Assembly: GCA_965649125.1 (NCBI GenBank)
Contig: CBFGJO010000003.1
Coordinates: 1,459-65,458, forward strand
Reading direction: 5' to 3'
Source of the DNA: a candidate division WOR-3 bacterium
GTDB taxonomy: Bacteria; Hydrothermota; Hydrothermia; Hydrothermales; Hydrothermaceae
DNA length: 64,000 nt
Both the position numbers and the translations under genes were made by a program. Under the pieces are notes generated by a model. The model was not told the DNA's origin and did not search any database. It saw only the letters and a program-made list of their open reading frames with translations. Positions 46,098 to 58,834 of the stretch are shown here, in pieces. Within the stretch, counting starts at the first letter, position 1, and every line of letters begins with the position of its first letter.

Positions 46098-48179
46098 ATG
46101 AATGTAATTGATTTATTTTTTAATCCAAAAAAAGTTGCAATAATAGGTGCTTCAAGAGACCCAAAAAGCCTTGCCTATCAGACATTCAAAAGTATGATAG
46201 AATCAGGGTTTGAAGGCGCATTTTTCCCTGTAAATCCAAATGCCGATTATGTTCTTGGTTATAAATCTTATAAAAGTGTGTTTGAAATCCCTGATAAAGT
46301 TGATCTTGCTGTTATAACAACTCCTTCAAAGATTGTTCCAGATATTTTGGAAGAATGCGGTAAAAAGGAAATTAAAGCAGTTATTATAATAACAGCAGGA
46401 TTTAAAGAAATTGGAAGGGAAGGCGAAATTCTTGAAGAAAAGGTAAAGGAAATTGGTAAAAATTATAATATGAGGATTGTTGGTCCAAACTGTCTTGGAG
46501 TTATAAATACATCTCCAAAAGTAAGATTAAACACATTCTTTGCTACACCTCTTCCAGAAAGGGGAAAGGTCAGTGTTGTCTCCCAATCAGGAGCAATATG
46601 TGTTTCACTTCTTGACCATGCAAGGGAAAAAGGGATTGGATTTTCAAAAATTTTAAGCATTGGAAACAAGGTTGATGTTGATGAGGTTCATGCCCTTTTA
46701 TATTTTAAAGATGACCCTGAAACCGAGGTAATTCTCCTTTATATTGAAGGTCTTTTAAGGGGAGAAGAATTTTTTAATGTTGCAAGGGAAACAGCAAGGA
46801 AAAAACCTGTTCTTGTGCTAAAGGTTGGAAGAACAGAGGAAGGAGCGAAGGCTGTATCATCACATACAGGGGCAATTGCTGGAATTGACCAGCTTTATGA
46901 TGCAATTTTTAAAAAGGCAGGTATTTTGAGAGTTAATACAATTGAAGAGATGCTTGTGAAAGCACTTGCACTTACCTGTCAACCCCTTCCAAAACGAAAC
47001 AGGATTGCAATAATAACAAATGCAGGTGGAACAGGTGTTATTGCAACTGATGAATGTGTAAAAAGGGGATTGAAACTTGCAAGAATTGATAGGAAAACAC
47101 TGGAAAAATTAAGGGAAAAGGTGCCACCATACGCATCCCTTTCTAACCCCTTTGACCTTATAGGGGATGCTGACGCTGAAAGGTATGAATGGGTTATGAA
47201 AAATCTTTTAAAAGACAAAAATGTTGATGCGGTTATATGTATGATGGTTCCCCAGAAAATGATAGATATGGATGAGGTTGCAAAAAGGATGGCAAAATAT
47301 GCTAAGAATAACAAAAAACCATTAATTCCTGCATTCCTTGGAGAAAAAAGCGTATTAACACCTATTGAAATTTTAAAAAAAGAAGGTGTTCCCTTTTATA
47401 TATTTCCAGAGGATGCAATAAACGCAGTTTCAGGTCTTTATGAATATATAAAATTAAAGAAATCAATAAAAGATGAAAAAGAAATTTTATTTGAGGTAAA
47501 AAAAGATGAAGCAAAAAAGATTTTAAGTAAATCAATTAAAAATGAAGATGGTTTTATCCCGCTCCATGATACTTTAAGGGTTTTAGAATGTTATGGGTTC
47601 AAAATAGTTGAATGGGAATATGCTCAGGATGAAAAGGAGATTGAGAGAATATGTAAGAAAATAAGTTTTCCTGTTGCTATGAAGGTTGTTGCAGATAAGG
47701 TAATTCATAAAATGAAAAAAGGAGGAGTAATTCTAAATATAGAATCTCAAGAGGAAGCAATAAAAAAATTTATAGAAATAAGAAAAAAATTTTCAAATGA
47801 AGGATTTAAAGGGGTAATACTTCAAAAAATGGCAAGGATGGGTAGAGAATTAATAGTGGGTGCAAAAAAGACTCCATTTTTCCCTCCACTTGTTATGTTT
47901 GGGCTTGGCGGAATATATGTAGAAATAATTAAAGATGTAAGTTTTGGCATTGTCCCTATTTTCCCAAAAGAAGCAATTGAGATGATTAAAGGGATAAAAG
48001 GGTTTAGTTTACTTAAAGGAAGTAATATAAATAAAATAAAAGAGATTATTTTAAGAGTATCCCAGATGGTTAAAGAGATTGAAGAGTTAGAGGAGATTGA
48101 TTTAAATCCGGTTTTTGCATATAAAAAAGAGGCAATTGTTGTTGACGCAAGAATAAAGATTAAAAAGGAGGAAAAATGA
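46098..48179 (+). CDS. ADP-forming acetyl-CoA synthetase family protein (fused alpha-beta)
   Basis: CoA-binding N-terminus (KKVAIIGASRDPKSLAY). RIVGPNCLGVI, VSQSGA and SSHTGAIAG (phospho-His loop). C-terminal ATP-grasp. Confidence 0.85.
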   Translation: MNVIDLFFNPKKVAIIGASRDPKSLAYQTFKSMIESGFEGAFFPVNPNADYVLGYKSYKSVFEIPDKVDLAVITTPSKIVPDILEECGKKEIKAVIIITAGFKEIGREGEILEEKVKEIGKNYNMRIVGPNCLGVINTSPKVRLNTFFATPLPERGKVSVVSQSGAICVSLLDHAREKGIGFSKILSIGNKVDVDEVHALLYFKDDPETEVILLYIEGLLRGEEFFNVARETARKKPVLVLKVGRTEEGAKAVSSHTGAIAGIDQLYDAIFKKAGILRVNTIEEMLVKALALTCQPLPKRNRIAIITNAGGTGVIATDECVKRGLKLARIDRKTLEKLREKVPPYASLSNPFDLIGDADAERYEWVMKNLLKDKNVDAVICMMVPQKMIDMDEVAKRMAKYAKNNKKPLIPAFLGEKSVLTPIEILKKEGVPFYIFPEDAINAVSGLYEYIKLKKSIKDEKEILFEVKKDEAKKILSKSIKNEDGFIPLHDTLRVLECYGFKIVEWEYAQDEKEIERICKKISFPVAMKVVADKVIHKMKKGGVILNIESQEEAIKKFIEIRKKFSNEGFKGVILQKMARMGRELIVGAKKTPFFPPLVMFGLGGIYVEIIKDVSFGIVPIFPKEAIEMIKGIKGFSLLKGSNINKIKEIILRVSQMVKEIEELEEIDLNPVFAYKKEAIVVDARIKIKKEEK

Positions 48180-48742
48180 TAAAAGTGGTGTTAATAGTCC
48201 TTATAATTTTAATTATAATTTTTTTAATTTCTATTTATAATTCTCTTGTAAAAGAGAGGATGCAGGTAAAGAATGCATGGAGTCAAATAGATGTTCAACT
48301 AAAAAGAAGGCATGACCTGATTCCAAACCTTGTTGAGGCAGTTAAAGGATATATGAAATATGAAAAGGAAACATTAACAAAAGTTATTGAAGCAAGGGCA
48401 AAGGCTGTTAGTGCAAGGGATGGAGGTGATTTAAAAGAGATTGGAAAAGCAGAAGGAGAACTTTCAGGGTTTCTTGGAAGATTATTTGCCCTTTTTGAAA
48501 GATATCCGGAATTAAAGGCAAATCAGAATGTAATGATGCTTCAAGAAGAACTTACAAATACCGAAAATAAGATAGCATTTGCAAGACAATTTTATAATGA
48601 TATGGTGATGAAATACAATACATCTATACAGGTTTTTCCAAAAAACATTATTGCAAATATGTTTAATTTTAAGTCCTTTGCCTTTTTTGAAATAGAAAAA
48701 CCGGAGGAAAAAGAGGCACCAAGGGTAAGTCTTGATGTCTGA
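48176..48742 (+). CDS. lemA: LemA family protein
   Basis: N-terminal TM followed by NAWSQIDVQLKRRHDLIPNLVE and RQFYNDMVMKYNT. Confidence 0.9.
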   Translation: MIKVVLIVLIILIIIFLISIYNSLVKERMQVKNAWSQIDVQLKRRHDLIPNLVEAVKGYMKYEKETLTKVIEARAKAVSARDGGDLKEIGKAEGELSGFLGRLFALFERYPELKANQNVMMLQEELTNTENKIAFARQFYNDMVMKYNTSIQVFPKNIIANMFNFKSFAFFEIEKPEEKEAPRVSLDV

Positions 48743-49685
48743 AATAATTACCTTTTATGATTTACAGAGAAAAAATATAAGGAAAACAGTACTTTTAATC
48801 TTATTTTTTATTTTACTTACGGGATTTACAGGTTTTCTGATAGATAATCTATTTTTAGGATTCCCTGATTATATAAAATTCCCTTTTATAACAAGTATTG
48901 CAACTTTTATTTCTGGAATACACTCTTTTATATCTTATAGATATGGAGATAAAATAGTCTTAAATTCAGTTAGGGCAAGACTTGCAAATCCAGAAATTTT
49001 TGAAGAAAAAAGGCTTATAAATATTGTTGAAGAAATGAAAATAGCAGCAGGTATTCCTATGCCAAAAGTATATATTGTTGAAACTGATATTCCAAATGCT
49101 TTTGCAACAGGAAAGGATCCTGATAACTCATCAATTGCTGTAACAAGAGGGCTTTTAAAAATTTTAAACAGGGAAGAAATGCAAGGAGTTATAGGACACG
49201 AAATTGCCCATATAAAAAATAGGGATATTTTAACAATGACAGTTGCAATAACTTTACTTGGCATAATAATAATTTTATCAGATATTGTTTTAAGAAGTTT
49301 AAGGTCCAGAGGGGATAGAAGAAGAAAAGTTTATATAAGAGGTAATATAATAATTTTTTTAATTATCTTAATCATTGCAATAATTGCACCATTAATTGGA
49401 AGACTTGTTTTTCTTGCAATTTCAAGAAGCAGGGAGTATCTTGCTGATGCAACCTCAGCCGAGCTCACAAGAGACCCGCTTTCACTTGCAAATGCTCTTG
49501 AAAAAATCCATTTAAGTCAAAAAGGCGCACCTATCGGTAATAAGGCAATTTCTCCCCTTTTTATAGTCTCACCACTTAGAAATAAATTAGAAAATATAGA
49601 AAATTTATGGGCTGATTTATGGAGTACACATCCTCCAATTGAAAAAAGAATTTTTTACTTAAAAAGGATGGCACATAGAGTTTAA
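48735..49685 (+). CDS. M48 family (HtpX-like) zinc metalloprotease
   Basis: GVIGHEIAHIKNRD HExxH, SREYLADA and HPPIEKRI. Confidence 0.85.
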   Translation: MSEIITFYDLQRKNIRKTVLLILFFILLTGFTGFLIDNLFLGFPDYIKFPFITSIATFISGIHSFISYRYGDKIVLNSVRARLANPEIFEEKRLINIVEEMKIAAGIPMPKVYIVETDIPNAFATGKDPDNSSIAVTRGLLKILNREEMQGVIGHEIAHIKNRDILTMTVAITLLGIIIILSDIVLRSLRSRGDRRRKVYIRGNIIIFLIILIIAIIAPLIGRLVFLAISRSREYLADATSAELTRDPLSLANALEKIHLSQKGAPIGNKAISPLFIVSPLRNKLENIENLWADLWSTHPPIEKRIFYLKRMAHRV

Positions 49686-50704
49686 TGAAAGCGGTTTTAA
49701 TAAATGAAAATGGACCACCTGAAGTAATAAAGATTGCTGAAGTTCCTTTAAGAGAATTAAAAAAAGATGAGGTAAGGATAAAAGTTAAAGCAGCAGGAAT
49801 AAATCATCTTGATATATGGATAAGAAAAGGGCTCCCAGGTCTTTCTTTAAAATTTCCACATGTCCTTGGAGCAGATGCAGCAGGTATTGTTGAAGAAATA
49901 GGAGAAAATGTTGAAAGAATAAATAAAGGTGATAAAGTTTTAATATACCCTGCAATTTTTTGTGGAAGATGCAAAGAATGTGTTTCAGGAAATGAAAATT
50001 TATGTAAAGAGTATAAAATTTTTGGTGAAAGAATACAGGGTGTTCAATCCGAATATATAAATGTGCCAAAGGAGAATGTCTTTTTAATTCCAGAAAATAT
50101 TTCTTTTGTTGAAGCAGCAGCAATTCCACTTGCACTTTTAACAGCTATCCAGATGATTGAAAAAGCAAACCCTGAACCGGGTATGAACTGTCTTGTTATG
50201 GCAGCAGGTTCCGGTGTTAGTTTAAATTTGATACAACTTTTAAAAATAATAAGATGTAATGTCTTTGTTACAGCAGGAAATAAAGAGAAGATTGAAAGAG
50301 CAAAATGGTTTGGCGCTGACGATGGTGTTGTCTATACAGAAAATAATTGGGAGAAAAAATTAAAGAATATTTGTGAAAAAATTGATATCATATTTGACCA
50401 TACCGGAAAGGATTTCTGGGAAAAATTAATAAAAATAGTTAATTGGGGAGGAAAGATAGTTATATGTGGTGCAACAAGTGGTTATGATGTAAAAATTGAT
50501 TTAAGACATGTATTTTTCAGACAGATCCAAATAATCGGTTCAACAATGGGTGGAAGGAGACACCTTTTAAAAGGGCTTGAATATGTAAAAAAGGGGCTTA
50601 TAAAAATATCTATAAGTAAAGTCTTAAATTTTGAAAAGGCACAGGAAGCACATAAACTGATTGAAGATAGAAAAACATTTGGTAAGATTGTTTTAAAATT
50701 TTAA
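49685..50704 (+). CDS. zinc-binding medium-chain dehydrogenase/reductase
   Basis: PHVLGADAAGIVEEIG, structural-zinc CGRCKECVSGNENLC and MAAGSGVS nucleotide fold. Confidence 0.8.
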   Translation: MKAVLINENGPPEVIKIAEVPLRELKKDEVRIKVKAAGINHLDIWIRKGLPGLSLKFPHVLGADAAGIVEEIGENVERINKGDKVLIYPAIFCGRCKECVSGNENLCKEYKIFGERIQGVQSEYINVPKENVFLIPENISFVEAAAIPLALLTAIQMIEKANPEPGMNCLVMAAGSGVSLNLIQLLKIIRCNVFVTAGNKEKIERAKWFGADDGVVYTENNWEKKLKNICEKIDIIFDHTGKDFWEKLIKIVNWGGKIVICGATSGYDVKIDLRHVFFRQIQIIGSTMGGRRHLLKGLEYVKKGLIKISISKVLNFEKAQEAHKLIEDRKTFGKIVLKF

Positions 50705-50726: not shown

Positions 50727-51857
50727 ATGACTCAAATATTTCAATTTCTTTTTATTTATATTTCTCCACTCCCGCCCTCAGGTATTGAGGCAAATGATTA
50801 TCCAAATGATGCGGGAGGAAAAATAGAAATAAGATGGGAACTTTCCCCTTCTGATTCAATAATAGATAATTATATAATTTTCAGACAGGAGGAAGTTGAA
50901 GGGAAATGGAGTTTACCCCAAATGCTTGAAATTCTTCCAAGGGGGACAAACTATTTTCTTGATTCAAACTGCAAAAATAAAGTTAAATACAGGTATTTTA
51001 TAAGGGCAATAAAGGGTGATTTATGGAATGATAGCGAATTTTCAAATGTAGCAGTTGCTTCACCGCAGTGGTTTCATAAAAAAAGAACGAGTGTTTTAAT
51101 CTTACTTATAATCATACTCCTTTTTCTCTTATATTTTATAAAAAGGGGGAAAAAGGAAGAACTGTTTATAAGAAAAATCACTGGGCTTGATGCAATAGAT
51201 GAAGCAGTTGGCAGATCAACAGAACTTGGAAGACCACTACTTTTTATCCTTGGTCTTGGAACTATTGCTGAGATACCAACAATTGCAGGACTTTCAATTT
51301 TAAAAAGGGTTGCAAAAAAAGCAGGTGAATATGAGGTTGATATTATAGTTCCCTGCTTTGATCCTGTTGTATTTGTTGCAGCACAGGAAACAGTTAAAGA
51401 AGGTTTTATTGAGGCAGGTAGACCAGACCTTTATAAAGAAGGGAATGTATTCTTTTTATCCTACGACCAGTTTGGTTATGCTGCTGGCTGTGATGGAATA
51501 ATGATCAGAGAAAAACCAGGTGCAATATTTTTGCAGGGATATTTTTATGCTGAATCACTTATTCTTGCAGAAACAGGAAACTCCATAGGGGCAATACAGA
51601 TATCAGGAACAACTGCTGTAACACAACTCCCTTTCTTCATTGCGGCAACCGATTATACATTGATAGGTGAAGAGATGTATGCAGCAAGTGCATATTTAAC
51701 GCGTGACCCACTATCAGTTGCAACAATAAAAGGTGAAGATTATGTAAAAGTATTACTTATAATAATAGTATTAACAGGACTTTTACTTGAAACAATCGCA
51801 TTTTTGACAAAAAATCCTTTATTCCATTTTTTAAAAAACTTTTTTGAAGTGATATGA
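50727..51857 (+). CDS. FN3-like ectodomain + TM + ~230-aa domain + C-terminal TM protein, unknown function
   Basis: PPSGIEANDYPNDAGGKIEIRWELSP..YRYFIRA looks FN3-like. TM segment SVLILLIIILLFLLYFI. Conserved-looking GLDAIDEAVGRSTELGRP segment. First gene of a five-gene coupled block. Confidence 0.55.
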   Translation: MTQIFQFLFIYISPLPPSGIEANDYPNDAGGKIEIRWELSPSDSIIDNYIIFRQEEVEGKWSLPQMLEILPRGTNYFLDSNCKNKVKYRYFIRAIKGDLWNDSEFSNVAVASPQWFHKKRTSVLILLIIILLFLLYFIKRGKKEELFIRKITGLDAIDEAVGRSTELGRPLLFILGLGTIAEIPTIAGLSILKRVAKKAGEYEVDIIVPCFDPVVFVAAQETVKEGFIEAGRPDLYKEGNVFFLSYDQFGYAAGCDGIMIREKPGAIFLQGYFYAESLILAETGNSIGAIQISGTTAVTQLPFFIAATDYTLIGEEMYAASAYLTRDPLSVATIKGEDYVKVLLIIIVLTGLLLETIAFLTKNPLFHFLKNFFEVI

Positions 51858-52639
51858 AAAAGGGAGTTCCACTTGTAATAACCTTTATTTCAGGATTCAT
51901 ATTAATAATTGCTTTATTTATTCCCCGTGAACCCTTTGGAAGTTTACAGGAAAGATTTAATGATTGGTATATAATTGTTTCAGGATTTACCCTTATCCTT
52001 GGCATTGATTCACTTCTTGCATACCATTATAGAAAGATTAAAAGAAAGGAAAAAGAATCACCTTATTCCCTTGCATTACTTTTAACATTCATAATAACAC
52101 TTTTATGGGGAATATATTCAGGAATAAAACATGGAAACCCATTTGCCCCTACATCAACATTTTTGAGATATTTTTATACATATATATTTGTTCCACTTCA
52201 AGCAACAATGTTTTCCCTTTTAGCATTTTTCATAGCCTCTGCTGCTTACAGGGCATTCAGGGCAAGGGGATTAAACGCAACTTTACTTTTAATATCAGCA
52301 GGAATTGTTATGCTTGGAAGGGTTCCAAAGGGGGAGGATTTTTCTCCATATTTTATTGGTATTACATTTATTTTAATTGCGATAGTCTGTGTACTTGAAG
52401 CAATTCCAAGAATCTCAATATATGAAAGAATTTTATTTTTCGGACTCGCCATTTTTTCTTTACTCCTTATTTTCCCCATAGGTATTTTCTTAAAAGCAAA
52501 ATTGCCCTTACTTTCTGATTGGATAATGAATGTTCCTCAACTTGGTGCAAAAAGGGGATTATTCATTGGTATATCACTTGGTGCAATAGCAATGGCTTTA
52601 AGAATTATTCTTGGTATAGAAAGAACATATTTAAAATGA
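51854..52639 (+). CDS. polytopic membrane protein, unknown function
   Basis: 261 aa with about 7 hydrophobic segments. ATGA overlap at both ends. Confidence 0.55.
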   Translation: MKKGVPLVITFISGFILIIALFIPREPFGSLQERFNDWYIIVSGFTLILGIDSLLAYHYRKIKRKEKESPYSLALLLTFIITLLWGIYSGIKHGNPFAPTSTFLRYFYTYIFVPLQATMFSLLAFFIASAAYRAFRARGLNATLLLISAGIVMLGRVPKGEDFSPYFIGITFILIAIVCVLEAIPRISIYERILFFGLAIFSLLLIFPIGIFLKAKLPLLSDWIMNVPQLGAKRGLFIGISLGAIAMALRIILGIERTYLK

Positions 52640-53457
52640 GAGAATTTTTTGAAAAAATATCAAGAATTGATAGAAGAATAATATACATTTTAGTTTTTGT
52701 ATGTATTACAATTCCGCTTTTAACTAAAAAAGGATTTGAATTTGAGGCACTTCCAGAGGTTAAGAATGCCTATGAATTTATAGAAAAATTAAAAGAAGGG
52801 TCTAATGTTTTAATTTCAATAGATTATGATGCTGCAAGCATGCCAGAACTTCAACCCCTTCTTGAAGTTATGCTTATCCATTTATTTAGAAAGGATTTAA
52901 AAGTGATAATGATGGGACACTGGCCACTTGGTCTTCCATTAGGACAGATTGCCCTTGAAAAAATTGCAAAGGAGATGAAAAAAGAATATGGAAAAGATTA
53001 TGTATTTCTTGGATATAGACCTGGAATAGCAGCAGTTATGCTTAATATGGGAAAGGAAATAAGAATGGTGTTTGATGTTGATTATAAAGGAACACCAATT
53101 GATTCATTACCTTTAATGAGAAATATTCATAATTATAATGATATTGCACTTTTAATAGGATTTGAGGCTGGCGCAGTTGGGGACTATTGGGTTCAATTTG
53201 CTCAGGCAAGATATGGACAGAAAATAATTTTAACATCAACAGCAGTTGTTGCACCGGATTTATATCCTTATTATCAGGCAAAACAGATTGAAGGACTTAT
53301 AGGGGGATTAAGAGGTGCTGCTGATTATGAAAATCTTTTAAAAAGAAGGGGATTTGCCTATGCGGGAATGACCGCTCAAACAGTTATACATATTATAATT
53401 CTGATATTCATAATTATTGGTAACATAGGTTTTGTAGCATTGAGGAGAATAAAATGA
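52636..53457 (+). CDS. bitopic (N- and C-terminal TM) protein with central soluble domain, unknown function
   Basis: The start is taken at the ATG in the ATGA overlap (MREFFEKISRIDRR..). The ORF-track start 52519 runs in another frame across the preceding gene. Confidence 0.55.
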   Translation: MREFFEKISRIDRRIIYILVFVCITIPLLTKKGFEFEALPEVKNAYEFIEKLKEGSNVLISIDYDAASMPELQPLLEVMLIHLFRKDLKVIMMGHWPLGLPLGQIALEKIAKEMKKEYGKDYVFLGYRPGIAAVMLNMGKEIRMVFDVDYKGTPIDSLPLMRNIHNYNDIALLIGFEAGAVGDYWVQFAQARYGQKIILTSTAVVAPDLYPYYQAKQIEGLIGGLRGAADYENLLKRRGFAYAGMTAQTVIHIIILIFIIIGNIGFVALRRIK

Positions 53458-54119
53458 TAGATATAATATTTTTATGGATTGCAGCAGGATTAACAATTGC
53501 AATATTTTCTTTTTTATACAAAGATAATCCCTTTTATAAGTTTGCAGAACATATATATGTTGGCTCTGCTGCAAGTTTCTGGTTCTTATATTTATGGTTT
53601 TTTGATGTTGAACCAAAAATTTTGGGACCATTCAAAAATGTTTTTAAAACTTATGGATTTTGGAATATGTGGCTCCATTTTACACCTGAACAATGGATTT
53701 TATTCATTCCAATATTTCTATCAATATGCATGCTACTCAGATTCATTCCAACTCTTGCATGGCTTTCAAGATGGGCAATAGCGTTTACAGTTGGAATGGC
53801 AGCAGGACTTGGTGTAACAGGTTCGCTTCAGGGATATATAGTTCCTCAAGTTCATGCAACAATTCTGCCTTTAATTGAAAAAGATTTACTTTCAAGTTTT
53901 AACAATTTAATAATAATTGTTGCAACAATTTCAACCTTATTTTACTTTTTCTTTTCAAAAGAACATAAAGGTACACTTGGTATCTTTTCAAGAATTGGAA
54001 TAACATTTATTATGATAGCCTTTGGTGCATCCTTTGGATATACAATAATGGCTCGTGTCTCCCTTTTAATAGGAAGAATTCATTTTTTACTATTTGAATG
54101 GCTTGGCTCTTTATTCTAA
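53454..54119 (+). CDS. polytopic membrane protein, unknown function
   Basis: 221 aa with about 6 hydrophobic segments. ATGA overlap with the upstream gene. Confidence 0.55.
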   Translation: MIDIIFLWIAAGLTIAIFSFLYKDNPFYKFAEHIYVGSAASFWFLYLWFFDVEPKILGPFKNVFKTYGFWNMWLHFTPEQWILFIPIFLSICMLLRFIPTLAWLSRWAIAFTVGMAAGLGVTGSLQGYIVPQVHATILPLIEKDLLSSFNNLIIIVATISTLFYFFFSKEHKGTLGIFSRIGITFIMIAFGASFGYTIMARVSLLIGRIHFLLFEWLGSLF

Positions 54120-55567
54120 TATTTTTAAATCAAACTGAATTAAAAGAGAAACTTTTCTTAGAGGAGCCAAAAAAATATAGAACATTTTATTATGATTTGA
54201 GGAATGAATATTTAAGAAATAAAGAATTTGAAAAACTTTATAAAATATCAAAACTCGCGGTTGATGAACTTGGTAAAAACTATTTATTCTATTCTGATTT
54301 TTTAATTTCAAGATATTTAACAGGCAGAAAATTTTACACACTCATTGATTCAATTGATTCATTTTTTGAAAGGGAGGAAATTAAAAGGATACTATTTTTA
54401 ATAATTGATTTGAAATTTTATGAATTTGCTGAAAAATTTATAAAATATGAGAGGGAGAAAAATAAGGATAAAAAAAATTTTTCAGAGATGCTTTATAGAA
54501 TTTATATTGAAAAAAATGATTATAAAAATGCGCTTAAAGAAATTAAGAATTTTGAAAACAAAGAAGTTATAAAAATTGAGATTAAAAGGATTTCAAAGAA
54601 TATTCCCTTTGAAATTATTGAAAATGAATTTCAAGAAGAGGAATTTTATGGAGTTCTTGCAGAGATAGCAATTTCAAAAAATATTTATGAAAAGGGAATA
54701 AATTATTATATAAAATCAAAGGATGAAAAGAAATTGGAAGAGTATGTGGAAAAAAATCCTGATTACATAATTAAATTTACTCAAAAAGAGAAAGAACCTT
54801 TAATTTTATTTTACAGGGCAAAGGCTCTTGAAAAAAAGGGGGAAAAAGAGGAAGCAAAAATTGTTTATGAAAATATAAAAGGGAAAATTAAAAAATTTGA
54901 GGATGAAATCCACTATTCCCTTGCAAATATATATCTTGAAGAAAATGAAATGTCAAAAGCAAAAGAAAATATTGAGAAAATAAAAAATGAGGAGAAAAAA
55001 AATGAAGTTTTGGGTTTGTATAATATTTTAACTGGTAATTTTAAAGAAAATTTTGAAATTCTAAAAAAATTAAATACAGCCTCTTCCCTTTTTTATTTTT
55101 TCCTTTCCGCCTATTTTTCTTTTAATTTTGATAAAGCAGAAAAACTCTCATTTAAATTCATTCAAAGTTTTCCACTGGATAAAAGGGTGCCTGATATCCT
55201 TTTTTTATCTTATATTTTAAAAAACTTTAAAGAGAAATTGAAAGAGTATGCCCTTTTTCATTATAAAATTTTAAAAGGGGAAGAAATTGAAATAAAAAAT
55301 GAAAAAGAAAAAGTTGATTTTTTATACTCTTATCTTTATGGAATTTATTTTAAGAGAAAAGGAGAAATAGATAAGAGTCTTATTTTTTTTGAAAAGGTAA
55401 GAGATGGCGATATACCAGAGATAATAAAAGTAAAAGCACTTATAGAAATTGCAGAGATATACAAGAAAAAGGATAAAAACAGAGCAAAAGAAATTTATAA
55501 AGAAATAATCTTAAAATATCCAGATAACCCATTTTTCCCTTACATTGAAAGGGAGATAAGAGAATAA
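54098..55567 (+). CDS. TPR-like repeat protein with N-terminal signal/anchor
   Basis: 489 aa. Lys/Glu-rich helical repeats (e.g. AKALEKKGEKEEAKIVYENI, LANIYLEENEMSKAKENIEKI, AEIYKKKDKNRAKEIYKEII). 22-nt overlap with the upstream gene. Confidence 0.6.
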   Translation: MAWLFILIFLNQTELKEKLFLEEPKKYRTFYYDLRNEYLRNKEFEKLYKISKLAVDELGKNYLFYSDFLISRYLTGRKFYTLIDSIDSFFEREEIKRILFLIIDLKFYEFAEKFIKYEREKNKDKKNFSEMLYRIYIEKNDYKNALKEIKNFENKEVIKIEIKRISKNIPFEIIENEFQEEEFYGVLAEIAISKNIYEKGINYYIKSKDEKKLEEYVEKNPDYIIKFTQKEKEPLILFYRAKALEKKGEKEEAKIVYENIKGKIKKFEDEIHYSLANIYLEENEMSKAKENIEKIKNEEKKNEVLGLYNILTGNFKENFEILKKLNTASSLFYFFLSAYFSFNFDKAEKLSFKFIQSFPLDKRVPDILFLSYILKNFKEKLKEYALFHYKILKGEEIEIKNEKEKVDFLYSYLYGIYFKRKGEIDKSLIFFEKVRDGDIPEIIKVKALIEIAEIYKKKDKNRAKEIYKEIILKYPDNPFFPYIEREIRE

Positions 55568-55762: not shown

Positions 55763-56137
55763 TTATCTTATAAACTTTAAAAAAGTAAAAAGAATTGCTG
55801 TTATAACACCAATTTGAAGAGCCCAGAATATAAACATCCATTTTATTATGTTTGCATATGTTCTTGAAATTTCAACCCTTAATTTTGAAATTTCTTCTGT
55901 TATCCTTTTATCAAGTTTTGCAAGGTCTTCTGAGCGCAATCTTGATATCTCTTCAGTTATCCTTTTGTCAAGTTTTGCTATCTCTTCAGTAAGTCTTCTT
56001 TCATATTTCTCTGTTTGGATCTCTATTATATTTTCCTTTACCTTTTCATCTGCAAGATTTATTAACTCAAGAAGTGCTTCTACTCCATCATCACCCAACT
56101 TTTCCCTCAAAACCTTTGGAACATTTATTATTTTCAT
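55763..56137 (-). CDS. tail-anchored coiled-coil protein (DUF1640-like) with 19-aa tandem duplication
   Basis: LREKLGDDGVEALLELIN N-terminus. Repeats EEIAKLDKRITEEISRLRS / EDLAKLDKRITEEISKLRV. C-terminal TM WMFIFWALQIGVITAILFTF. Confidence 0.6.
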   Translation of the reverse strand: MKIINVPKVLREKLGDDGVEALLELINLADEKVKENIIEIQTEKYERRLTEEIAKLDKRITEEISRLRSEDLAKLDKRITEEISKLRVEISRTYANIIKWMFIFWALQIGVITAILFTFLKFIR

Positions 56138-56187: not shown

Positions 56188-56916
56188 TTATTCTATATTT
56201 TTGCTTATTTCCCTTATATTTTCTGCACAGAGTTTTATCTCAATTGCAATGTTTATATTATTTAAATTCTCTGATTTCTGAGAAATTGTATTTCCTTCCC
56301 TTAAAATCTCCTGCCCCAAAAAATCAATTTTTTTACCACATTCACCCTTTGAATTTATGGTTTTAAATATTGAATCAATATGTGAAAGAATCCTTACCTT
56401 TTCTTCCTTACATTTTTCATCATCCAGATTTTTTAATAAATTATCAAGTTTTTTAACTTCTTCCAAGAGTGCCTTTTTTAAATTTTCACCTTCCTCTTTT
56501 CTAAATTTCAAAAGTTTTTTTATTGCAATCTCAAGTGTATTTAAAAATATTCTTTTTTTCTTCTCTAAATTCTCCTTTTTTATGAAAATCTCCCTTAAAA
56601 TATCAGCGTTATCAAAATATATGTTCAACTTTTCACTTTTTTCAAATCTTTTTATACTATGAATAAGTCTTTTAAGTTTTTTTTCATCAGCAATATAATC
56701 TTCTGGTGGTGGAAAATAAAACTTAATTTTTACTTTACCCCTTTTTAAATATTTTCTGAGAATTTTTCTCATCTCCCTTTCAAGCCCGATTATATCCCTG
56801 TTTCCTGAAAGGGTTATTTCAAGTTCCTTTGAATTAAGAGAGATTATTTCAACTTCAAAATTTCCATATTTTTTTGTATATCTTTTCGCATATCCATATC
56901 CTGTCATGCTTAACAT
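56188..56916 (-). CDS. yicC: YicC/YloC family protein
   Basis: MLSMTGYGYA start. C-terminal GKKIDFLGQEILREGNTISQKS matches the YicC DUF1732 motif. The start is chosen at the ATG 1 nt after the upstream stop rather than at 56940. Confidence 0.8.
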   Translation of the reverse strand: MLSMTGYGYAKRYTKKYGNFEVEIISLNSKELEITLSGNRDIIGLEREMRKILRKYLKRGKVKIKFYFPPPEDYIADEKKLKRLIHSIKRFEKSEKLNIYFDNADILREIFIKKENLEKKKRIFLNTLEIAIKKLLKFRKEEGENLKKALLEEVKKLDNLLKNLDDEKCKEEKVRILSHIDSIFKTINSKGECGKKIDFLGQEILREGNTISQKSENLNNINIAIEIKLCAENIREISKNIE

Positions 56917-56917
56917 A

Positions 56918-57574
56918 TCATTCCAGAATAACTTCTTCAAAAAGGAGTTGATTTAGGAAAAAATAAAGGAATGAAAAGAAAAGTAGAATATAAAAATAGG
57001 GGGAAAGGAATTTTTCATTATATAAAACTTTATTTGTGAGGGAAATTGCAGAAATAAAAGGCGGTATAAAAAGGGGAATTATAATAAGAGGTAAAAAAAA
57101 TTCTTTTGCCTTTGTATTCATTGCTAAAAAGGAGATTAAAATTCCCAAAGAAGAAAAGGAAAAGGATGTAAAAAATAAAATTATTAAAAAGTAGGAAAAT
57201 ATCTTTAATGAAAAGGGGAAATTTAAAAAAATTAAAAATAAAAAATAAAGAAGTATTCCTGAGAGGAATAAAAAAATTGTTAAAGAAAGTGTTTTTCCGA
57301 TAAAAATGCTTTCCCTGTCAATTGGTAAAATAAGAAGCCCTTTAAAACCACCATTCATTTCCTTCACTATGTATTTTGAAAGGGTTATTATTCCAGAAAA
57401 AAGAAAGGAGAGCCAGAAAATAAAGGGTGAAAATTCTTTATTCTGAATTGTAAAAGAGATAAAAACTATTAACAAAAATGAAAAAAGTAGAAAAGGTATT
57501 ATTATTTCTCTTGTCTTTATTTCAAGAATTATATCTTTATAAATTATCCAAAAAGAGGAAAATTTTTTAGCCAA
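56918..57574 (-). CDS. CcmB-like ABC-2 type permease
   Basis: 218 aa with six TM segments. KDIILEIKTRE and LLILPIDRESIFIGKTL resemble heme exporter CcmB. No CcmA or CcmC nearby. Confidence 0.4.
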   Translation of the reverse strand: MAKKFSSFWIIYKDIILEIKTREIIIPFLLFSFLLIVFISFTIQNKEFSPFIFWLSFLFSGIITLSKYIVKEMNGGFKGLLILPIDRESIFIGKTLSLTIFLFLSGILLYFLFLIFLNFPFSLKIFSYFLIILFFTSFSFSSLGILISFLAMNTKAKEFFLPLIIIPLFIPPFISAISLTNKVLYNEKFLSPYFYILLFFSFLYFFLNQLLFEEVILE

Positions 57575-57752
57575 TTACTTTATTTACTTTTCTTAAACAT
57601 TTTGTGCAAACATAAACTCTTTTTATTTTATCTTTTTCTTTTATCCTTATTTTATGTAAATTTGGTTTAAAAAATCTCCTTGTAACATTATGAGCATGGG
57701 AAACATTCCTTCCTATTTGTGTATGTTTTCCACATTTATAACATTTTGCCAT
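57567..57752 (-). CDS. rpmB: 50S ribosomal protein L28 (four-Cys zinc-ribbon form)
   Basis: MAKCYKCGKHTQIGRNVSHAHNVTRRFFKPNL..VCTKCLR. Confidence 0.9.
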   Translation of the reverse strand: MAKCYKCGKHTQIGRNVSHAHNVTRRFFKPNLHKIRIKEKDKIKRVYVCTKCLRKVNKVIG

Positions 57753-57784
57753 ATTTTAATTGTATAGTAAAAATATCTATAATT

Positions 57785-58834
57785 TCAATCGCGTTGCCAC
57801 CATCTATTCGGAAATTTTTCCTTTAAAATTTTGTCTCCTTCACCTACCGGCTCTAAACCATTCATTCTCATCTCTGCATCCATCATTATTTTAACAAGTT
57901 CCTTAAATTTAATTTTTGGTTCCCATCCAAGTTCCCTTTTTGCCTTTGAAAAGTCTGCCCTTAAATTTTCAACATCTATAGGTCTTAAATATTCTTTATC
58001 TATCCTTATATAACTTTCCCATTTAAGTCCAACATAGGAAAAAGCCTCCTCAAGAAACTCTTTAACGGAATGCCATTCACCCGTTCCTATTACATAATCA
58101 TCAGGTTTTTCCTTTTGGAGCATTTTCCACATTACTTCAATATATTCGGGTGTATAACCCCAATCCCTTTTTGCTTCTATATTTCCTAAGTATAAAAACT
58201 CCTGTTTTTTCTTAAGAATATTTACAATTCCAAGTGTAATCTTTCTTGTAACAAATGTTTCCCCTCTTCTTGGTGATTCATGGTTAAAAAGTATTCCATT
58301 TACAGCAAATATTCCATAAGCATCCCTGTAAATTCTTGTCATCCAGTAAGCATAAAGTTTTGCTGCTGCATAAGGACTTCTTGGAAAAAATCCAGAATTT
58401 TCATTTTGAGGAGGGCGAGCAAGACCAAACATTTCTGATGAAGAAGCCTGATAAAATTTACAGGAAATACCACTTTTTTTAATTGCCTCTAAAATCCTTA
58501 CCGCTCCTAAACCTGTTATATCTCCTGTATATTCAGGCAGATCAAAACTAACTTTTACATGGCTCTGCGCACCTAAGTTATAAATTTCATCAGGTTTTAC
58601 CTCATAAATTAAATTTGTTAAATATGAAGAATCTGATAAATCTCCATAGTGTAAGAAAAGTTTTGCGCCAGGTGTATGGGGGTCTATGTATATGTGTTCA
58701 ATCCTTGTTGTTGATGTTGTTGAAGACCTTCTTATTATTCCATGAACTTCATATCCTTTTGACAACAAAAATTCTGCCAGATAAGAACCATCCTGTCCAG
58801 TTATTCCAGTTATTATTGCCTTTTTCGTTTTCAT
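57785..58834 (-). CDS. gmd: GDP-mannose 4,6-dehydratase
   Basis: [37 protein letters not shown] and [17 protein letters not shown]. Confidence 0.9.

Follow-up and report, generated by a model that had tools for sequence, protein, structure and literature searches.

A stretch of 64,000 nucleotides from a candidate division WOR-3 bacterium of the Hydrothermota (contig CBFGJO010000003.1, positions 1,459 to 65,458; hereafter the window) carries five overlapping genes, here called G1 to G5, which a preliminary description had put forward as an uncharacterized, translationally coupled membrane module. Comparative analysis revealed that the conserved unit consists of four of these genes, G1–G4, not five, and that these four are kept in the same order and on one strand in distantly related bacterial phyla. 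We propose that their products form one undescribed heteromeric inner-membrane complex, the DUF6754 module, that would act as an ATP-independent trans-membrane relay or translocation device, a reading that we consider plausible while stopping short of calling it probable; that such a complex exists is far more likely than that it has the activity proposed here.

A conserved four-gene unit

All five genes lie on the forward strand. G1 (50727-51857, 376 aa) encodes a protein with FN3 and DUF6754 domains, G2 (51854-52639, 261 aa) a polytopic subunit, G3 (52636-53457, 273 aa) a protein with a soluble domain between two transmembrane (TM) helices, G4 (53454-54119, 221 aa) a 6-TM subunit, and G5 (54098-55567, 489 aa) a tetratricopeptide repeat (TPR) protein. 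Direct reading of the DNA confirmed the five open reading frames (ORFs) together with the junctions that had been described for them, namely ATGA stop/start overlaps between G1 and G2 (51854-51857), G2 and G3 (52636-52639), and G3 and G4 (53454-53457), all on the forward strand like the 22-nt overlap between G4 and G5 (54098-54119). The mechanical ORF of G3 begins at a TTG at 52519, and alignments identify the ATG at 52636 as the start common to all homologues. The window has a G+C content of ~30%, and 4-nt overlaps are present in at least nine other pairs of co-directional neighbors within it. Because such overlaps are the norm here, the boundaries of the module cannot be drawn from the ATGA overlaps alone.

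Related loci were collected by scanning one genome from each GTDB species for a sequence pattern; 80 loci were fetched, and all five window proteins were used as tblastn queries. Relatives of G1 were found by the scan in at least 413 GTDB species and number more than 7890 in total, and a G3 profile searched against 1.84 billion representative proteins (50% identity) retrieved 4769 sequences at E<=1e-3, 1054 of them at E<=1e-30. G1, G2, G3, and G4 are collinear and on one strand in all 69 related loci that are long enough to judge, which come from WOR-3, Hydrothermota, Stahlbacteria, Edwardsbacteria, Cloacimonadota, Latescibacterota, and UBP2. In these loci, the module spans a median of 3.4 kb with intergenic gaps mostly between -4 and +15 nt, and the overlap at the G3/G4 junction is 4 nt or 1 nt in most of them. 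The G1–G4 proteins are about 45–60% identical between phyla, and their pairwise identity matrices correlate (r=0.77-0.85), which fits inheritance of the four genes as a unit. Because the synteny of G1–G4 held in 69 of 69 loci, their linkage is raised above chance. The surroundings of the module vary: clustering of 718 flanking ORFs gave no family present in more than 12 of the 69 loci, and Pfam-annotated neighborhoods from other assemblies are unlike one another.

The module is also not confined to the Fibrobacteres–Chlorobi–Bacteroidetes (FCB) group. At one distant locus (L087), the four proteins are 50%, 29%, 31%, and 35% identical to G1, G2, G3, and G4 of the window, respectively, and following this locus led to a second large clade comprising Armatimonadota and Fervidibacterota in which the four genes are still together. 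Distant loci from these phyla and others carry the same four genes at 29–50% identity, and the range of the module therefore extends beyond the FCB group. The gene order even survives insertions, of a DNA methyltransferase gene in L085 and L086 and of a transposase-like ORF in L033. The former encodes an N6_N4 DNA methyltransferase and stands between G3 and G4 (L085:7838-8905, L086:3584-4651, and likewise in L051), with the rest of the module intact; the latter contains an HVHEIII motif and lies directly after G1 in an Edwardsbacteria metagenome-assembled genome (MAG; L033:3477-4013, + strand). A further contig of this MAG (L074) contains a second, complete module, which reflects either two copies or mixed bins.

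None of the module proteins matched a PADLOC model, and the module is absent from plasmid and phage collections. On these negative results and an identity pattern that looks vertical, an origin as a defense system or mobile element was rejected. From its sequences, the module appears to be a housekeeping rather than a mobile unit that is inherited vertically as a tight operon.

G5 has a different distribution. It matches the Pfam models TPR_6 (31.8 bits, cut-off 26.3) and TPR_2 (27.1 bits, cut-off 27) and has a hydrophobic N-terminal anchor or signal. By tblastn, it was found in L001-L004 only, divergent TPR genes overlap the end of G4 in L005-L007, and it is absent 3' of G4 in the other WOR-3, Cloacimonadota, Edwardsbacteria, Latescibacterota, and Armatimonadota loci examined. 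Because it was found only in these seven loci, we regard G5 as an accessory of the Hydrothermia lineage. It also evolves much faster than the core genes, with 76% identity where G2–G4 have 93–95%. The earlier suggestion of a membrane module therefore stands as a tight syntenic operon, with four members and with G5 as a Hydrothermia-only companion.

Subunits and their predicted topology

From its N-terminus, G1 consists of a signal-like hydrophobic segment, an FN3 domain (aa 18-111), TM1 (aa 118-143), an alpha/beta domain, and TM2 (aa 328-361). The alpha/beta domain is the DUF6754 domain of ~190 aa (about aa 146-327; aa ~150-325 in the structural model), which is six-stranded and looks Rossmann-like. 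G1 matches the Pfam DUF6754 model (PF20539) with 356.5 bits (E=8.7e-107, gathering threshold 27 bits) over positions 2-252 of 257. The match covers the very highly conserved aa 112-361 (51060-51809, + strand), and all 15 diverse domain-only sequences matched the model, too. Alignments of FCB and Armatimonadota representatives contain 35 invariant columns, and the motifs of the domain are IRRIPGLxAIDEAVGRxTEMGRP, DQF(G/A)YAAG, AESLILAE(T/N)G, GAIQ(I/V)AGT, and DYT(I/L)IG(E/D)E. G1 is 92% identical to a protein from a WOR-3 MAG; its next relatives are from Hydrothermia and Hydrothermales, and relatives are annotated as "DUF6754 domain-containing" or "fibronectin type III domain-containing protein". 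The AlphaFold2 (AF2) model of G1 has a pLDDT of 82 and starts with a short N-terminal helix, followed by the FN3 beta-sandwich with pLDDT >90. The FN3 part matches titin and Fn3-like chains in profile searches (E=1e-9 to 6e-6) and gave a Foldseek probability of 1.0 with target TM-scores of 0.6-0.76. A domain-only DUF6754 profile found nothing among PDB sequences at E<=10. A fold search with the full-length G1 model did not serve to classify DUF6754, as all 50 matches listed were FN3 or spurious.

Several G1 homologues differ from the window protein in their domain composition. In Armatimonadota and Fervidibacterota, G1 has 255–280 aa and is without FN3, and one G1 homologue carries a GH85_C-like FN3. 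Some Armatimonadota homologues (P0499 and P0510, 462–490 aa) continue after TM2 with a coiled-coil tail of ~200 aa containing LTxxQ-like repeats, whose match to Pfam LTXXQ is subthreshold (E=0.077); this tail is presumably periplasmic. One Armatimonadota genome has G1 (DUF6754) genes in tandem (L091: 7154-7900 and 8001-8780).

G3 is composed of TM1 (aa 13-30), a six-stranded Rossmann-like domain (aa ~35-235), and TM2 (aa 240-272), and its AF2 model (pLDDT 93, pTM 0.88) consists of TM1, a helix, a (beta-alpha)x6 domain, and TM2. Conserved motifs are SxD(Y/W/F)D, YGxD(Y/W)VN(L/I)GYRPG, GLxGAAEYE, and MxxQSxxH. Among the 50 matches listed by a Foldseek search of G3 against PDB, only generic Rossmannoids were found (E>=3e-4, TM-scores 0.2-0.64, with 0.3-0.6 for the best), including half-domains of GT-B glycosyltransferases, MT0777, LOG-like proteins, a molybdenum cofactor (MoCo) carrier, an integrin beta-I domain, flavodoxin-like folds, and transhydrogenase dIII; the top match was LpcC (5i45, E=3.3e-4), followed by OtsA, PimA, WaaG, and MnaA. 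None of the 30 G3 members scanned matched a Pfam family, and the candidates ILEI, TrkH, and MARCHF6_C, each matched by few members below threshold, were rejected. The soluble domains of G1 and G3 have the same order of secondary-structure elements and no detectable sequence likeness (hhalign probability 0.5%), and according to alignments and models, the invariant residues of both map to loops after strands. Among G3 homologues, the soluble domain is tandemly duplicated in P0301 (630 aa), P0297 (537 aa) has a helical insert of ~240 aa, and P0287 (838 aa; L088:7001-9517) has an insert of ~550 aa with a CARDB domain within the soluble domain. An apparent fusion of G3 and G4 (L091:9804-11297) reads out of frame at the junction, probably because of a frameshift or assembly error, and was not used as evidence.

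G2 has a core of six TM helices, to which a 2-TM insert (aa ~160-215) is added only in the long form typical of Hydrothermia, the version in the window. Its motifs are PLQATMFxLLAFFIASAAYRAFRAR and LRIxLxxER. G4 has six TM helices and two signature motifs, FGAxFGxT(V/I)MARxSLxIxR and, predicted to face the cytoplasm, SFLY(K/R)(D/E)NxxY(K/R)FAEH; the motifs placed at the cytoplasmic side are YRAFRAR in G2 and YKDNPFYKFAEH in G4. In both the FCB and the Armatimonadota clade, the residues of G2 and G4 that never vary inside the membrane are Gly, Phe, Met, and Thr, some of them at GxxxG-type spacing, and the invariant charged or polar residues are located at membrane interfaces (R133, R136, R234, E256, and R257 in G2; N25, E32, H33, R106, Q132, R201, and R208 in G4). 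In the alignments of G2 and G4 from both clades, Cys is invariant at no position, nor is Asp or Glu at any position inside the membrane. DUF3704 was considered as the family of G4 and rejected: 12 of 30 members match it over 10 residues only and below threshold. TssN, SpoVAB, DUF373, SLATT, and claudin were likewise rejected for G2, with few members matching, below threshold. G2 and G4 have no detectable homology (hhalign probability 0.7%), and no internal repeat was found in the halves of either. Across all pairs of module proteins, hhalign probabilities were <=1.5%, with the best local matches in structurally equivalent elements, and we claim no paralogy inside the module.

Variants of G4 were observed in two groups of loci. 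In five Cloacimonadota-type loci (flank cluster 10), a G4 paralogue is encoded directly upstream of G1, giving the order G4'-G1-G2-G3-G4 (e.g., L039:9213-9929, + strand, and L060:154-768); this paralogue of 238 aa, which has an additional TM helix at its N-terminus, keeps the SFLYRDN.FYKFAEH and GASFGYTVMARISLLIGR motifs. A Fervidibacterota G4 (L092:10802-11875) contains a beta-sandwich of ~140 aa in the loop between TM2 and TM3 that matches Lyase_N (27.4 bits, E=3.6e-6) and CBM_11 (E=2.8e-4), a possible glycan-binding add-on.

The distribution of charges and the architecture of variants allowed us to predict the orientation of all four proteins. G1 has a strong charge bias, with KK..R.K after TM1, some of its homologues have classic positively charged signal n-regions, and in variants carrying a Zn-ribbon at the N-terminus, one more TM helix precedes TM1; together, these features place FN3 outside and DUF6754 inside. 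G3 has DRR before TM1 and RRxK after TM2, and in the variant P0324, an Arg-rich stretch after TM2 is followed by a third TM helix and an exported tail. These features and the CARDB variant P0287 indicate that the domain of G3 is outside, with both termini in. The positive charges of G2 cluster at the N-terminus, in the TM2-3 loop, in the TM4-5 loop (YRAFRAR), and at the C-terminus, indicating an N-in, C-in topology for the 6-TM core. For G4, L090 and the L039 paralogue have the extra N-terminal TM helix after positive charges, and L089 has an extra C-terminal TM helix followed by KTR; these terminal helices and the insert in L092 point to an N-out, C-out topology. The module is consequently predicted to comprise two oppositely oriented pairs, in which the domains of G1 and G3 would lie on opposite faces of the membrane and G2 (N-in) would be inverted relative to G4 (N-out). 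The domain descriptions given at the outset, G1 with FN3, TM, domain, and TM, a polytopic G2, a bitopic-type G3, a 6-TM G4, and a TPR protein G5, are all borne out.

Genes around the module

In the window, G1 is preceded by a run of genes on the same strand (46098-50704) that according to Pfam encode an ADP-forming acetyl-CoA synthetase, LemA, an M48 (HtpX-like) peptidase, and a medium-chain (MDR) zinc dehydrogenase. The run has internal overlaps of 4, 11, and 1 nt and is separated from G1 by 22 nt, and G1–G4 may be co-transcribed with it in this organism; among the related loci, tblastn showed the MDR gene to be common only to the two closest relatives. Downstream of G5 on the reverse strand are a 124-aa ORF (55763-56137) and genes for a YicC-like endoribonuclease, a CcmB-like ABC-2 membrane protein, and a GDP-mannose 4,6-dehydratase (56188-58834), and none of the latter three is kept beside the module elsewhere. 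The 124-aa product combines a coiled-coil segment in which AKLDKRITEEIS(R/K)LR is repeated with a TM helix at the C-terminus. Its sole Pfam match is CCDC90-like (PF07798), which we take to be the former DUF1640; with 18.2 bits against a cut-off of 33.5, the label "DUF1640-like" that the gene had received has weak support. The view that the flanking genes are unrelated to the module holds, and they differ between genomes.

Some genes neighbor the module in subsets of loci. Proteins with the C-terminal domain of the type IX secretion system (T9SS) that are encoded directly upstream of G1 are large secreted peptidases of the S8 and C25 families (e.g., L041:3084-6590, L065:6385-9891, and L084:1630-5118). 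Among the flanking ORFs as a whole, this domain is found in about 5%, and a link to type IX secretion was rejected as background abundance; the module is also present in Armatimonadota. Directly 3' of G4, LspA (Peptidase_A8) is encoded in 10 loci of one WOR-3 clade (the L009-L018 type; e.g., L013:4625-5110 and L082:8472-8942), with genes for outer-membrane beta-barrel-like proteins next to it. LspA, the beta-barrel-like genes, AdoHcyase, and SAM synthetase were considered as conserved neighbors that might give a clue to function and were set aside, all being clade-specific. In Armatimonadota and Fervidibacterota, a conserved ORF of ~100 aa, termed G0, lies directly upstream of G1 (L087:5009-5323, L090:7691-7996, L091:6713-7027, and L092:7590-7931). 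It encodes the motif R(R/K)(L/M)E(V/T)PA(V/I)xFLE..KP(L/V)xF followed by a hydrophobic hairpin. Still farther upstream, L087 and L091 contain another ORF, whose copy in L091 has a subthreshold bPH_6 match. Neither G0 nor this other ORF was found in the window or the FCB loci.

Comparison with known systems and proposed function

We compared the module with known systems by profile, family, and fold searches. G2, G3, and G4 have no match in Pfam, NCBIfam, or PADLOC, and 30 homologues of each revealed no consistent weak family. Profiles of all four proteins, including one of the DUF6754 domain by itself and ones of G2 and G4 to which Armatimonadota sequences had been added, matched FN3 alone among PDB sequences at E<=10. 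None of the five operon proteins matches P-loop, ABC_tran, FeS, or flavin families in Pfam or NCBIfam or contains a Walker or cofactor motif, and no conserved ATPase was found among the neighbor genes across loci. These searches agree with the preliminary description, which had recognized no transporter, secretion, respiratory, or biosynthetic signature and no Walker or cofactor motif, and they assign no protein to a known complex. The description of the module as uncharacterized holds for G2–G4, which have no family entry; G1 is a full-length, high-scoring member of a family that is catalogued in Pfam as a domain of uncharacterized function, and no mention of "DUF6754" or "PF20539" was found in the literature searched.

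The Rnf and Na+-NQR complexes resemble the module in having small subunits encoded in one operon, two 6-TM subunits in opposite orientations (predicted in the case of the module; RnfA and RnfE are reportedly oriented in this way), and soluble domains tethered by TM helices on both membrane faces. In contrast, the module has no sequence kinship with them and lacks conserved Cys as well as flavin or FeS motifs; paralogy between G2 and G4 is not detectable, and two TM helices, not one, clamp each of the soluble domains. The Rnf-Nqr hidden Markov model (HMM) did not match G2, G4, or 30 homologues of each even at E<=1, and the FMN_bind, Fer4, and flavodoxin HMMs did not match G1 or G3. The best structural match for the six-stranded parallel alpha/beta sandwich of G3 is to GT-B half-domains (LpcC 5i45, OtsA 1gz5, PimA 4nc9, and WaaG 8b5q); however, this match is weak (E>=3e-4, TM-score 0.2-0.45, ~12% identity), G3 has a single such domain, which lies between TM helices on what is predicted to be the periplasmic side, and no G3 member matched the Glycos_transf HMM. 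Polysaccharide co-polymerases (Wzz/Wzc) are similar to G3 in gross topology, with a periplasmic domain between two TM helices and cytoplasmic termini, whereas their periplasmic domain consists of an alpha/beta base and a long helical hairpin and that of G3 is a compact Rossmannoid; the Wzz HMM gave no match, and none of the 50 G3 fold matches listed is a polysaccharide co-polymerase. The Bat operon (BatA/BatB with vWA domains, TPR proteins BatC/BatE) likewise encodes membrane-anchored Rossmannoid domains next to TPR proteins in FCB-group bacteria, and an integrin beta-I domain is one of the weak fold matches of G3. The module differs in having no VWA HMM match, no canonical DxSxS motif of a metal ion-dependent adhesion site (MIDAS), and a TPR gene that is outside the conserved core; BatA_N matched G1 with 17 bits, below its cut-off of 25.9 and in the TM region only, and no MoxR or DUF58 genes were found in module neighborhoods. 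With regard to the stators MotAB, ExbBD, TolQR, and GldLM, there was no match to the MotA_ExbB, GldL, or GldM HMMs and no invariant intramembrane carboxylate in G2 or G4. The module failed to qualify as any of the known systems against which it was compared. By the evidence available, from sequence for DUF6754, G2, and G4 and also from fold comparison for G3 and FN3, it thus appears to be undescribed and to lie outside known kinds.

We suggest that the DUF6754 module may represent a new class of ATP-independent inner-membrane machine that is built from two pairs of inverted orientation, relays a ligand, a chemical group, or a conformational signal, and belongs to the core housekeeping functions of several FCB-group candidate phyla and of Armatimonadota, a proposal for and against which we find the case close to balanced. 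In such a machine, a Rossmann-like domain held between two TM helices would stand on each face of the membrane, that of G1 in the cytoplasm and that of G3 in the periplasm, and G2 and G4 would pack closely into a core of some 12 helices. In the G1 and G3 domains, the loops that follow the beta-strands correspond to the usual ligand crevice of a Rossmann-like fold and could serve as binding sites. From the cytoplasmic G1 site, a bound ligand or chemical group would then pass via the G2/G4 core to the periplasmic G3 site, or in the reverse direction; alternatively, binding would be signaled across the core. No ATPase would take part. The partner on the outside may be an envelope glycan or envelope protein, as suggested by the add-ons FN3, CBM11/Lyase_N-like, CARDB, the LTxxQ-like tail, and the TPR protein G5.

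Several observations weigh against this proposal. The loops of G1 at aa 250-290, which carry the invariant DQFGYAAGxDG and AESLILAETG, are modeled with low confidence, although an interface that becomes ordered only in the complex would fit this behavior. FN3 swamped the fold search with G1, and a remote kinship of DUF6754, G2, or G4 to a known machine could still exist. Assembly and fixed stoichiometry are deduced from the structure of the operon, and a search for riboswitches or other RNAs upstream of G1 in 24 loci found none, leaving no clue to a ligand. The suggested link to glycans draws on accessory domains of single lineages and on the GT4, Wzi, PAP2, LspA, and T9SS-cargo neighbors, which are common in these genomes anyway. 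Finally, T9SS C-terminal-domain proteins are weakly enriched directly upstream of G1 (8 of 63 loci, 13%, vs. ~4–5% at other positions).

Other explanations of the conserved operon have to be considered. The four proteins could instead constitute a membrane enzyme complex acting on an envelope polymer or a lipid-linked intermediate, either to build or to modify it, in which DUF6754 would bind an activated donor (nucleotide-sugar or acyl), G2/G4 would present a lipid carrier, and G3 would complete transfer or processing. This would be in line with the single Rossmann domains of GT-B glycosyltransferases as top G3 fold matches, with invariant acidic and Arg residues at the C-terminal strand ends of both soluble domains, with the lack of an obvious polar conduit in the membrane core, with the occurrence of glycan-type accessory domains, and with the PAP2, PMT_2, GT4, and Wzi genes that adjoin some loci. 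We nevertheless consider an enzyme complex unlikely: the fold matches, with TM-scores of 0.2-0.45, are typical of any Rossmannoid, no HMM for a glycosyltransferase, acyltransferase, or SGNH enzyme matched, the neighbor genes are not conserved, and GT-B enzymes need two Rossmann domains on the same side, here predicted to lie on opposite sides. An ion- or electron-translocating module akin to Rnf/Nqr is very improbable given the missing Rnf-Nqr, FMN_bind, Fer4, and flavodoxin matches, the lack of invariant Cys and intramembrane carboxylates, and the lack of detectable homology between G2 and G4, even though G2 (N-in) and G4 (N-out), with 6-TM cores of ~210–260 aa, are arranged as are RnfA/RnfE and NqrD/NqrE, TM-anchored domains are found on both faces, and the weak G3 fold matches include flavodoxin-like proteins and transhydrogenase dIII.

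A trans-membrane signaling or mechanical coupler, stator- or receptor-like and working without movement of a substrate, would account for the tightly packed helix core with GxxxG-type invariants, for conserved charges at the interfaces only, and for the conserved pocket in the cytoplasmic domain, and the FN3, CBM, CARDB, and TPR parts could serve as sensors or anchors. Stators of the MotB/ExbD/TolR type, however, have an invariant intramembrane Asp that the module lacks, as it lacks MotA_ExbB and GldL HMM matches, no kinase, cyclase, or helix-turn-helix output domain is encoded in or beside the operon in the loci examined, and sensors are rarely so uniformly conserved or single-copy, making a coupler distinctly improbable. 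That all five genes including G5 encode one complex of fixed stoichiometry, as the preliminary description had it, is a notion to which the 22-nt G4/G5 overlap and its retention in L001-L004, with divergent copies in L005-L007, lend some weight; it is decidedly doubtful because G5 is absent elsewhere and evolves faster than the core. Finally, the genes might encode co-transcribed but unrelated membrane proteins, given that closely packed genes with 4-nt overlaps are common throughout this genome. We find this scarcely credible, since the order is strict in 69 of 69 loci and across superphyla while the surroundings change, and it outlasts the insertion of foreign genes within the module.

The DUF6754 module is not a curiosity of one metagenome bin, given its presence in at least 413 GTDB species and the thousands of diverse G3 members in metagenomes. 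It is found in two distant bacterial lineages, with the conservation expected of core machinery. It also looks experimentally tractable, as its small soluble domains are modeled with confidence and the Armatimonadota include cultivated species. If the module is indeed a new relay or translocation device, it would add a plan to the few known connections between cytoplasm and envelope, and it would give a role to a conserved gene set in WOR-3, Cloacimonadota, Latescibacterota, and Edwardsbacteria, phyla that are known almost only from genomes.

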